Shown piece after piece: positions 28,401 to 31,400 of a DNA stretch of 35,626 bases. The stretch's first letter is position 1; every line of letters begins with the position of its first letter. A program made the position numbers. Source of the stretch: a virus (lineage: Duplodnaviria; Heunggongvirae; Uroviricota; Caudoviricetes); the IMG/VR virus record IMGVR_UViG_2874962485_000008. The stretch is one strand, 5' to 3'.

Positions 28401-31400
28401 GCCTGCTGAGCTAAGTCGGCGCTGGCCCACCACCGAGGACTCGAACCTCGCACCGTCAACTTAGAAGGTTGATGCTCTATCCGGATGAGCTAGTGGTGGT
28501 TGGTGGCCCTTGCTGGACTTGAACCAGCGACCTGGCGATTATGAGTCGCTCGCTCTGACCAACTGAGCTAAAGGGCCGGAGGCAGAATAATAACCATATG
28601 TCATCACATCTGCAAACTCATCTGACCACCAGCGTGTTTAACGTCCTGTACCGTTTTTCAGGCATAAAAAACCCGCCCGGAGGCGGGTTTAAGCTGTGTG
28701 GCGAAGCAACCACTCTTAACAGAATATCCCGTTTTTTACGTACGTAAAATATTTTCTAGAAAGTCGCCCCTTACCATCAGGGATGTTCAATATATTTGTC
28801 CATTTCTAACCGGACACCCAACATCATCAACATTCCTTCCACCACCCCCTCGGCTTTTTGTAGCTTCTTTCCTATATAACCATCTGAGCATCCATGCTTC
28901 CGCGCCAGCGTCATGAATGTCATCCCAAACACGTAGTAGTCAACCAGCAAGTCATGTAGATCGTTGTTGTTCCGGTTAAGGCGGGCCATACACCCACATA
29001 TAACCATCGCGTCATCGTCACAGCATTGCGGGCGGGATTTTACTTTTGAAGGGATTAATCCCTTAAAACCGGCAGCAATGGACGACCAGGTCACATCCTC
29101 ATGATTATTAGCCACCCACGCGCCCCAGCGCTCAAGAACCTGCTGAATATCACGCATCACTGTCTTTACCCCTGTCCCATCCACGATGAACAATCAGAAC
29201 ACCATCAACAATGGCGTGCCCTTTGCCCTCTTTATCTTCAGCATATTTTCTTACCGTGGCGCGATTACAGTTCAGCATTCGTGAAACTTCGGTCATATTA
29301 CCTCGTGTCTGGATAAGCAGTTCCGGTATCGTTTGAATTTTGACGCTCATCAAATACTCTCCGGTTCGGTGATTTTTATCCCGGGCTTTCCACCAGGGAC
29401 ATAATGATCGCGCACAAGCCAGGGCAAAACAAACTCATGGCGCATCAGCGCAGCGCCTCCTGCACCAGTTTTTCAAACTTTCCGACTCTGGTTTCCAGCT
29501 CTGCCACACAGTCCACCAGCTCATCTACTGCTTTCTGTGCGCGATGCTTCGCCTGCATCAGTTCCCGAAGCGCGGGTACCATATCTTTACGGATAGCATC
29601 TTTTGTTATGCCCGTTTTTTCGAGTTGTTCAGCATGACGCAGCATTTCCTGCGCGTGTTTACGCAATTGTTCAGGGGTAAAAGTCATTGTCTGGTTGTTC
29701 AAAAGAAACGCTCCATCTTACTGCTGTCAGTTCGTTTATTACTGTATCTGCGCGGATTGCCGGGCTTCATGGGAGTGGAAAGCACCCGTGCACTTTCCTG
29801 GTCCACAGGCAGAAAATGTCCGTTATAAAAACGCCGGTAAATCGTTCCCAGAGAACCGTTACGTTGTTTCGTGATATTGATTTCTGCGATGCCCCTGGCC
29901 TGCGTATCCGGGTTGTACACTTCATCCCTGTAAAGCATCAGAATGATGTCTGCATCCGCCTCTATTTCTCCGGAATTTTTCAGGTCTGAGTTCATGGGAC
30001 GTTTATTGGGTCTGGACTCCACACCGCGGGAGAGCTGGCTCAGCGCAATCAACGGAAAACCACCGGATTTTGCCAGGCCTTTAAGCCCCTTTGAGATTTC
30101 ACCCACGGCAAGGTCATGACGCCCCGTGGTTCGGGTTTTTATCAGCCCGAGATAATCAACCACCACCAGCGCCGTTTCCGGATATTTAATCAGGTGGTGT
30201 TTCGTTGTTGCGCATATCTCATCAATGGCCAGGTTCGCCTGGTCCACCATCCAGATATTGCGCCCGGTCATCCGCCCCACCCCTTGTGAGAAACGCGTCC
30301 AGTCTTCATCTTCAAAGTGAGCCACAGATTTCAGGCGTGATACTGGCATCCCTCCAGCCGCAGACACCATACGTTCACCAATCTGGATGTTCGCCATCTC
30401 CATGGTGAACAGAAGCACACCATGCCCCTGCTCAGTCACCTTGTCGATGATGTCCAGCGCAAGTTCGGTTTTCCCCATCGAAGGACGGGCGGCAATGAAT
30501 ACCAGGTCTCCGGGCTCCATACCGCCTGTTTTTGCGTCCAGTTCATCAATACCGGTCATCAACGTCCTGGATTTCTCCAGCCCCTGATTCCGGCATTCAA
30601 CACGCTCAACCACTTCCGGAAGCACATCATCAATATGTACCGGCTGAATGACGCCCTTTCCTGTCGACAGTGTGACCATCATGTTCTGCGCATCCTTCAG
30701 GGCATCTTCAGCTGCTTCACAGGTATGCGCATCACGTAATTTCTGCAGCGCCTCATTCAGTGTTTTTTCTGCATCGCGCAGTGCGGCATTGCGCCGCAAC
30801 GCTGCAACATAGTGCTCCAGTGAAGACTTCACCCAGGTTTTACGCCCGGTATCAGTAATCACCGGGGCAAGTTCCGGCATCTCATTACACAACAGCACGG
30901 GGTCAATCACTCCTGAAACACGGGCCTGTCTGCAGATGCCTGTATAGATATCCTGATACGCTCGTACAGAAAAAACGTCCGCTGGCAGTGTGGCCAGAAT
31001 ATCCATCACTTCAGGATCTGCTCCGCGCAGAAAGAACGCGCCGATGACAGCGCCTTCAAGGTCATCGTTACGCCATACTGGAGTTGTCATGCAGCCACAC
31101 CTCTGATACGAGAACGGTAACTGGGCCAGTTAAACGACAACCAGTTGCGTCCCCCGTCTGTGATCCTGTCGGCAATTCGGGGACTGATGAACGCCCACAA
31201 CTCTTCCGGTGAGAGGTTACTGATCAGAATGGTGGGCAAGATACTTTCGTACCTGGCGTTGATAATTTCCTGCAAAATAGCCATTTCAGCCGCGCTGCCA
31301 AACTGAACGCCAACTTCGTCGATGATCAGCAAATCCATTGACGCATAACGCTCAATAACTTCATCCGCTGTTTTTTCGCTGTCATTCCGCCAGCAATTTT

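Follow-up and report, generated by a model that had tools for sequence, protein, structure and literature searches.

The locus described here lies on the minus strand of a 35,626-nucleotide stretch of tailed-phage DNA, IMG/VR record IMGVR_UViG_2874962485_000008 (hereafter the window), where ninH, the antiterminator gene Q, the late promoter pR', a terminator hairpin, tRNA genes and the lysis genes S, R and Rz follow each other in that order. It is very probably (about 85%) the late-gene antitermination cassette of a lambdoid prophage inactivated by insertion sequence (IS) elements in Shigella flexneri or enteroinvasive Escherichia coli (EIEC). Such a cassette is a known kind of element, and identical copies are already annotated in public EIEC and Shigella genomes. 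The feature had been delimited in a preliminary description as positions 28580-29157, a span that does enclose exactly Q and the interval between Q and the tRNA genes.

The Q protein matches the PF06530 profile over all of its length (profile positions 1-118 of 118, 181.5 bits for a cut-off of 26, E 5.8e-54), and this profile defines the Q21 family, one of three unrelated families of Q proteins (PMC9388147). The gene occupies the place usual for Q21-family antiterminators, between the nin region on one side and pR' and the lysis genes on the other; its start overlaps the end of ninH, and the same open reading frame (ORF) was called by the Prokaryotic Genome Annotation Pipeline (PGAP) in the identical EIEC prophage. 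The preliminary description likened this protein to the Q of Stx2-converting phages (Stx, Shiga toxin), and the alignment bears it out: Q is 84.8% identical to the Q of 933W and of Sakai Sp5, with which it forms one close clade, and is only distantly related to Q21 (phmmer E 4e-8, PDB 6P18). Identity reaches 87.2% with the Q of the Shigella Stx1 phage 75/02, 87.4% with that of an Stx2e prophage, 85.1% with that of a non-Stx prophage in E. coli 510016 and 81.7% with QuuD of the K-12 prophage DLP12; proteins 80-87% identical to Q are also found in Enterobacter, Salmonella, Yersinia, Trabulsiella and Pantoea. Among solved structures the sole phmmer matches are those of phage 21 Q (PDB 6P18/6JNX, E 3.9e-8, residues 8-85), and identity to Q21-type proteins is about 27-35%. 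In the AlphaFold2 model of Q (predicted local distance difference test 77.6), the top 11 Foldseek matches in the PDB are all Q21 chains (template modelling scores 0.50-0.64), followed by region 4 domains of extracytoplasmic function (ECF) sigma factors, a likeness of Q21 also noted in publications. The protein is thus modelled with a Q21-like fold containing a helix-turn-helix that resembles sigma region 4. Q is a Q21-family protein of the Q933W/QuuD subgroup, clearly distinct from the Q21 allele type used in the typing of Shiga toxin-producing E. coli. Assignment to the phage-82 family was considered and dropped because PF06530 is the Q21 family and Q82 belongs to PF06323. The NCBIfam search of Q, S and the 209-residue ORF returned no match.

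Homology to 933W is unbroken from Q through the annotated pR' to the first annotated terminator (75.7% over 551 nt, ending at 28666; blastn). The best matches of the module formed by pR' and the terminator are those of the Stx2e prophage (90% over 124 nt) and of DLP12 (89% over 82 nt), the figure for 933W being 78% over 90 nt. The promoter consists of a -35 hexamer TTTACG (28743-28748) and a -10 hexamer TATTCT (28721-28726) separated by a 16-nt spacer. Seven loci were aligned (the window, the Stx2e prophage, K-12 DLP12, E. coli 510016, phi467, 75/02 and 933W): the -35 hexamer and the 16-nt spacer belong to the common design, the TAnnnT pattern of the -10 element is kept in all six that retain the promoter, and the TAAGAGTGGTT box at 28708-28718 is identical in six of the seven, phi467 being the one that differs. 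The box overlaps a small hairpin, GTGGTTGCTTCGCCAC, at 28698-28713; at least 120 viral contigs contain the box. Work on the Sakai Stx phages has mapped experimentally both the PR' start, by differential RNA sequencing (dRNA-seq), and a 3' end 258 nt downstream (PMC7547250). When 258 nt are counted back from the U-tract of the second annotated terminator of 933W and Sakai, the start falls inside the homologous TAAGAG box, which supports the assignment of pR'; the corresponding +1 is predicted at 28713-28717 in the window. The promoter, its start site and antitermination itself are what we infer from homology. The AAGAGT motif at +1 to +6 would be a candidate pause element, by its resemblance to the -10-like sigma-dependent pause elements (SDPE) of lambda and 21 (PMC9388147, 10.1101/651190).

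The hairpin that follows associates six G-C and three A-U pairs with a tetraloop and a U6 tract, and has in this way the attributes of an intrinsic terminator whose efficiency is a prediction. A strict scan of both strands (at least six perfect pairs, at least five of them G-C, and at least six T in seven positions) finds three distinct sites in the window, this hairpin included, for a mean of 0.03 expected by chance (100 first-order Markov resamplings of the window, based on its dinucleotide frequencies). A generic consensus scan of the window for promoters and terminators missed it, the likely reason being that some of the U-tract is consumed by the flanking A3/U3 pairs. Its position is conserved in the seven loci, where the loop varies and the stem is kept; the hairpins of the leader display no covariation among the aligned loci because their stems are invariant. 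The Rfam search returned no family for the leader, the spacer that precedes S or the small RNA StxS, only the tRNAs and a group II intron exceeding the threshold, and the sub-threshold matches on the hairpin are generic terminator look-alikes.

This hairpin is the homologue of the promoter-proximal terminator of 933W (20726-20748, +27 to +49), an assignment that follows from the lack of a counterpart, in the window, of the 933W segment running from +50 to the tRNA promoter pT (best E 4.9). Its homology with the mapped tR' or with StxS, the RNA made of the last 74 nt (+173 to +258) of the PR'-tR' leader of Stx phages (PMC7547250), was considered and rejected, the mapped tR' being the second terminator, at +258 (PMC7547250 and the coordinates). 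Of the strong tR'-like terminator announced after Q, the strength and the rarity hold (-16.6 kcal/mol), but not an identity with the tR' mapped at +258. We nevertheless take it as the operative tR' of the window because it is stronger than its 933W homologue and because, apart from its counterpart, no terminator-like element was identified in the approximately 120 nt between pR' and essD of DLP12. The terminated leader RNA is predicted to measure about 46-52 nt.

The palindrome that overlaps the -35 hexamer is, judging from its placement and its pairing with Q across loci, our candidate for the Q-binding element of the Q933W/QuuD branch. In 41 of 49 distinct upstream segments, the centre of the longest palindrome lies exactly 23-23.5 nt before the TAAGAG box, which places it at about -27 from the start; shuffled sequences show the same centring in 2.2% of cases. 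Among the loci that carry the box, the sequence downstream of the -10 element is near-invariant and the upstream sequence falls into discrete classes of palindrome plus A-tract. Six palindrome classes, drawn from loci L014-L133, namely TTTACG(TA/AT)CGTAAA, GCGTACGC, GCGGTCCGC, TGGAATTCCA, ATTCG-TTA-CGAAT and TGTTATAACA, pair one-to-one with upstream Q clusters (70% identity, 105 loci), and this pairing holds even where Q lies 0.8-2.5 kb away. In the representatives of the Q clusters, the N-terminal 50 residues are conserved (mean column identity about 0.8), residues 51-100, which include the helix-turn-helix, are the most variable (about 0.55), and the clusters with a common palindrome also share the segment of residues 51-100. 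At the position of the palindrome, the 21-type promoters of phage 2851 and HK639, from which the repeat was read, contain the direct repeat TGAGCAAATGAGCAAC, which fits the published architecture of the Q21 site with its two directly repeated 8-bp subsites. The pR' of the window has no direct repeat resembling this Q21 Q-binding element and carries the 16-bp palindrome instead; the difference concerns the architecture of the site and not the membership of Q in the Q21 protein family. We would tentatively extend this to the sister clades, including the Q proteins that control Stx1 and Stx2: all could recognise a dyad-symmetric site, the Q/palindrome specificity being swapped as a pair over an invariant module of pause element and terminator. 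No description of a dyad-symmetric Q site was found in the searchable literature, a scope that does not take in the older papers on H-19B and 933W.

In the mechanism we propose, the Q protein made from the early rightward operon would bind its site at pR', most likely the palindrome with its A-tract, whose centre lies at about -27 bp from the start, and would be loaded onto RNA polymerase held in a sigma70-dependent pause just after initiation, on the invariant TAAGAGTGG region, by homology with Q21 and lambda Q (10.1101/651190; PMC9388147). The modified polymerase would travel with Q, which would prevent the formation of the terminator hairpin; the hairpin at +25 to +50 and the later ones would then be read through, leading to the expression of the tRNAs, S, the 209-residue ORF, R, Rz and the morphogenesis genes. 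Without Q, most of the transcription from pR' would stop at the hairpin and yield a short leader of about 48 nt. The four tRNAs (anticodons CAU, UCU, UGU and UCC) could be expressed in the lysogen from pT, independently of Q.

Table 1. Coordinates of the antitermination cassette and of its surroundings in the window.
Feature	Position	Strand	Remarks
507-residue ORF adjoining the intron	32563-34086		possible intron-encoded protein
Group II intron domain	32473-32559		Rfam RF00029
IS911-like orfB	31994-32410		
ninH, end of the nin region	29150-29353	-	PF06322, E 3.6e-26; 'protein ninH' in the annotation of the identical EIEC prophage
Q antiterminator, 126 residues	28777-29157	-	PF06530; Q21 family, Q933W/QuuD subgroup
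Non-coding stretch between Q and the tRNAs, 199 nt	28578-28776	-	
16-bp perfect palindrome, with an A-tract after it	28734-28749		TTTTACGTACGTAAAA; overlaps the -35 hexamer; candidate Q-binding element
Late promoter pR'	28721-28748	-	aligns with the annotated pR' of 933W
Near-invariant initial transcribed region	28698-28718	-	TAAGAGTGGTT box overlapping the small hairpin GTGGTTGCTTCGCCAC
Intrinsic terminator, tR'-like	28664-28690	-	AAACCCGCC-TCCG-GGCGGGTTTTTT; ΔG -16.6 kcal/mol
pT-like tRNA promoter	28587-28616	-	TTGCAG-17-TATTAT; consensus scan 9/12; homologous to the annotated pT of 933W
Four tRNA genes	28267-28577	-	ARAGORN; Rfam RF00005, 56-70 bits; annotated Ile, Arg, Thr, Gly in the identical prophage
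tRNA-Ile (CAT), Ile2-type, ileZ-like	28501-28577	-	
tRNA-Arg (TCT)	28423-28499	-	
tRNA-Thr (TGT)	28345-28420	-	
tRNA-Gly (TCC)	28267-28341	-	
Non-coding spacer, 292 nt	27975-28266	-	
S, phage-21-type holin, 71 residues	27759-27974	-	PF04971, E 5.5e-35; 77.8% identical to 933W S
209-residue ORF between holin and endolysin	27126-27755	-	phrog_1085 (function unknown), E 1.2e-73
R lysozyme, 165 residues	26563-27060	-	PF00959; comparison with the CFSAN029787 prophage
Rz spanin, C-terminus cut by IS600	26126-26545	-	PF03245
IS600 copy	~24865-26130		gap in the homology to the intact prophage, from 26130 to 24865

Several points weigh against this reading. The -35 hexamer is poor in several of the promoter classes. 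The hairpin homologous to that of the window is weaker in Sakai and 933W (-12.1 against -16.6 kcal/mol), the Sakai transcripts pass it and the 258-nt RNA ends at the second terminator (PMC7547250), and the strength of a hairpin is no proof of efficient termination at this locus. A palindromic site departs from the only solved relative, since Q21 binds a direct repeat. The pairing of the Q clusters with the palindromes could result in part from simple linkage, but linkage would not explain a dyad symmetry that recurs at a fixed position. Lastly, the early region is broken at 31985, within the replication region, by the IS911-like element and the group II intron, so that Q may never be expressed in this host.

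This last point bears on the present state of the prophage. Over the 1.5 kb around Q, the window is 100% identical to a prophage found in a few complete E. coli genomes, such as that of CFSAN029787, and 9 of the 5426 complete E. coli genomes contain most of this segment. The closest protein-database entry to Q is from S. flexneri (99% identical), and the junction between IS600 and Rz has an exact match in S. flexneri SFBU1023. CFSAN029787 is a human stool isolate that we take to be enteroinvasive; its prophage adjoins mlrA (L001 5160-6446), also named yehV, which we assume to be a classic integration site of Stx phages, used in O157:H7. We see an even chance that the cassette is now silent, only the tRNAs still serving the host through their separate promoter pT while Q, pR' and the lysis genes drift. 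The damage to the prophage speaks for it: the homology break and the insertions span 31985-34086 on the minus strand, a premature stop reduces R to 165 residues instead of 177, and IS600 has taken the place of about 2.5 kb, with ParDE, a KilA-N gene and part of terS, the small terminase gene, and has removed the C-terminus of Rz. However, no damage affects ninH, Q, pR', the terminator or S in the window copy, and the segment 31985-26130 is 99.66% identical to an apparently complete EIEC prophage, from which it follows that the decay is recent. The switch is probably idle in this genome, given the damage to the early region and to the lysis genes, but this concerns its activity in this host and is compatible with the identity of the cassette.

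It is rather unlikely that the hairpin is a leaky attenuator or a pause site, the real blocks being located downstream, in the spacer and in the element at 28034-28060, and pR' feeding the tRNAs constitutively. The passage of the Sakai PR' transcripts through the homologous hairpin as far as +258 is in line with this alternative, as are the unusual structure of the spacer (minimum free energy -89.1 kcal/mol, z -4.07, none of 200 shuffles being as stable) and the four terminators annotated in HK639 between Q and the holin, where they flank a stretch homologous to the spacer. Against it, the long hairpins of the spacer (28215-28260, 28137-28205 and 28083-28135, with perfect stems of 9-13 bp) have no proper U-tract, the element at 28034-28060, CGCCCGCTTTTGCGTTTTTTT, is a weak terminator-like one, and the hairpin of the window exceeds that of 933W in strength, with its six G-C pairs, its tetraloop and its U6 tract; its counterpart in DLP12 is also the sole terminator-like element identified between pR' and the holin. 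The spacer is a conserved structured non-coding segment that contains no stx remnant and may act as an RNA processing site or as an attenuator. It is present in just six phage records, four of them about 97% identical (97-98% in phi467, PhiR47_1, vB_EcoS-689R5 and vB_EcoM-606R7; 75% in HK639).

The preliminary description had further presented the region as the regulatory chassis of a toxin-converting phage devoid of stx, with an interval between Q and S that holds only tRNAs. The gene content of this interval indeed consists of the four tRNA genes and no other credible gene, and toxin cargo is absent: the tblastn search with Stx1A/B and Stx2A/B at E ≤100 gave noise only in the window, the best match listed for Stx2A and Stx2B (E 0.09) lying outside the interval, and in the spacer, where remnants of stx had been considered worth searching, a single match with E 3.9 was obtained on the wrong strand, so that nothing is detectable there. 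At E ≤1e-3, the window has no tblastn match to the four Stx proteins, the 933W esterase (nanS-p) or p43, and, of the proteins searched, S and R of 933W alone gave matches. No remnant of the StxS region was found in the window. The chassis claim therefore stands for the Q clade, for the unbroken homology to the terminator, for the homologues of ileZ, argN and pT and for the absence of stx; it does not stand as something specific to toxin phages. DNA related to Q and pR' occurs in 4270 of the 5426 complete E. coli genomes, mostly annotated as quuD or 'antiterminator Q family', and stx in 759. Similarly, of 77 loci with the promoter module, 73 show no stx over a distance of 7 kb (these loci being those with at least 2.5 kb of downstream sequence among the at least 120 box-bearing viral loci, plus a few fetched reference loci). 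Since the Q clade and its module, which K-12 also carries, are mostly free of stx, the presence of the cassette here is ordinary: this type of Q and pR' is not a hallmark of toxin phages, and the Stx phages are a minority that insert stx into such an interval. Nine viral contigs (for example L026, L031 and L067) combine a 933W-type promoter with ileZ-argN-argO; the downstream sequence available for them contains no stx, and they may be 933W-like phages devoid of it or truncated records.

The interval between Q and S is made of three separately exchangeable modules: Q with pR' and the terminator, the ileZ/Arg tRNAs, and the Thr/Gly tRNAs with the spacer and the S21 holin. Non-Stx phages with an apparently different Q family share the tRNA array, the spacer and the holin at 95-98% identity, and the module junctions are tight, with no deletion scar. 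Nothing indicates a past insertion of stx, and none need ever have occurred. That the window derives from a former Stx-converting phage, whose stxAB between Q and S was lost by clean deletion or module replacement, is improbable, for although its Q is 85-87% identical to that of Stx1, Stx2a and Stx2e phages, its pR'-terminator module is nearest to an Stx2e prophage, its pT and ileZ/Arg tRNAs are 76-90% identical to those upstream of stx2, phi467 has stxAB just upstream of a tRNA-Thr/Gly-spacer-S module 98% identical to its own, and its intact relative adjoins mlrA (an assumed Stx-phage site), it retains no trace of stx, of the nanS-p esterase or of the StxS region, its tRNA genes follow each other at 1-3 nt without a scar, its four-tRNA layout is shared by phages and prophages that are not Stx ones and have other types of Q, and the Q clade and promoter module are mostly stx-free and present in K-12.

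The comparison with known systems sharpens this picture. In 933W and Sakai Sp5 the order is Q933W, PR', tR', ileZ argN argO, stx2AB, nanS-p, S and R. The window shares with 933W a colinear pR' (-35 TTTACG, palindrome, -10 TAnnnT), the TAAGAGTGGTT box, the promoter-proximal hairpin, pT, the ileZ-like and Arg tRNAs, and the S (78% identical) and R (92%) proteins. Unlike 933W, it has neither stxAB nor the esterase nor the segment from +50 to +258, and hence no mapped tR' or StxS; its Q is deprived of the 18-residue C-terminal extension that overlaps pR' in 933W; its tRNAs are Ile2-Arg(UCU)-Thr-Gly where 933W has Ile2-Arg(UCG)-Arg(UCU); S comes after a structured spacer of 292 nt; and the virion genes of the prophage are of the lambda-like long-tail type. 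StxS likewise stems from a homologous promoter and a prematurely terminated leader, but the leader of about 48 nt predicted for the window is unrelated to the StxS seed region. The resemblance to DLP12 of K-12 includes Q (81.7%), the pR'-box-hairpin segment (89% over 82 nt), the same palindrome TTTACGTACGTAAA, the absence of toxin and an S21-type holin; in contrast to the window, DLP12 has nmpC (with IS5) inserted between quuD and pR', and essD comes about 120 nt after its hairpin, without an intervening tRNA island or spacer. With phage 21, whose Q has been solved alone, on DNA and on RNA polymerase (PDB 6P18, 6P19, 6P1A, 6JNX), the window shares the Pfam family, the predicted fold and the genomic position of Q, and the same cassette logic of promoter, pause element and terminator; but Q21 has 162 residues against 126, with about 27-35% identity, and the 21-type promoter has a TTGACA -35 hexamer and places the direct repeat TGAGCAAATGAGCAAC between the -35 and -10 elements.

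The downstream half of the cassette has its closest relatives elsewhere. PhiR47_1, vB_EcoS-689R5, vB_EcoM-606R7 and phi467 possess the tRNA-spacer-S21 module with 95-98% identity and the same tRNA order; the shared part begins at the tRNA promoter, or at tRNA-Thr in the case of phi467, and ends at the start of S. From the tRNA promoter to the start of S, identity is 95% with the non-Stx phage PhiR47_1 and with the non-Stx prophage of E. coli 510016, and from tRNA-Thr onward it is 98% with phi467. The Q of PhiR47_1 (250 residues) has no similarity to that of the window and apparently belongs to another family; there the second tRNA is Lys(UUU) and not the Arg(UCU) of the window, and YdfR stands between S and R in place of the 209-residue ORF. 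In phi467, stxAB takes the place of the Ile/Arg tRNAs of the window, upstream of tRNA-Thr.

The four tRNA genes are separated by 1-3 nt, and the pT-like promoter ends 10 nt upstream of tRNA-Ile; in Sakai Sp5, a transcription start site driving the tRNAs was seen by dRNA-seq (PMC7547250). The Ile and Arg tRNAs are 88-90% identical to ileZ and argN of Stx2 phages. Of the features of the ileZ-argN-argO trio, the window has pT, an ileZ-like gene and a single Arg(UCU) gene; it lacks Arg(UCG) and has Thr and Gly in addition. The body of tRNA-Arg(TCT) is nearer to argN of 933W than to argO or to the host argU. Its homologue in PhiR47_1 and 510016 is Lys(TTT) (L006 2595-2671; L010 3751-3827), and this comparison points to a shift of the anticodon within one phage tRNA lineage. 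The tRNA-Thr and tRNA-Gly genes match in two pieces, with 98.7% identity, a tRNA-Tyr/Thr/Gly cluster present in two Salmonella records of the phage collection. This cluster is presumably the chromosomal thrU-tyrU-glyT; if it is chromosomal, the match would suggest a capture from the host operon with loss of the Tyr gene.

Between S and R, the 209-residue ORF has no Pfam or NCBIfam match; its relatives have at this position a YdfR-family gene or nothing. It is possibly a moron or a lysis accessory gene, in which case the late operon would not be strictly free of cargo.

In conclusion, to have a Q933W-like antiterminator and no stx is the usual condition of this cassette, and the finding in the form in which it was first posed matters little. 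Because the Q clade is present in most E. coli, K-12 included, PCR or sequence markers of the Q933 type are not evidence of a present or former Stx phage. On the other hand, phi467, recorded as a Shiga-toxin phage and, we believe, an Stx2f phage, has its stxAB flanked by a copy of this pR'-hairpin leader and by the tRNA-Thr/Gly-spacer-S module (L007 354-3167). Homology on both sides of stxAB means that recombination could move stx into prophages such as that of the window, whose upstream module is common to Stx2e and Stx1 phages and whose downstream module is common to phi467 (98%). The entry of stx by recombination with Stx phages into such a Q-controlled, tRNA-equipped slot could therefore occur, a point that bears on how Stx-producing Shigella and EIEC emerge. 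Finally, the clade-specific palindromes at a fixed place in pR', which are possibly new, provide a testable candidate for the site recognised by the Q proteins that control Shiga toxin expression.

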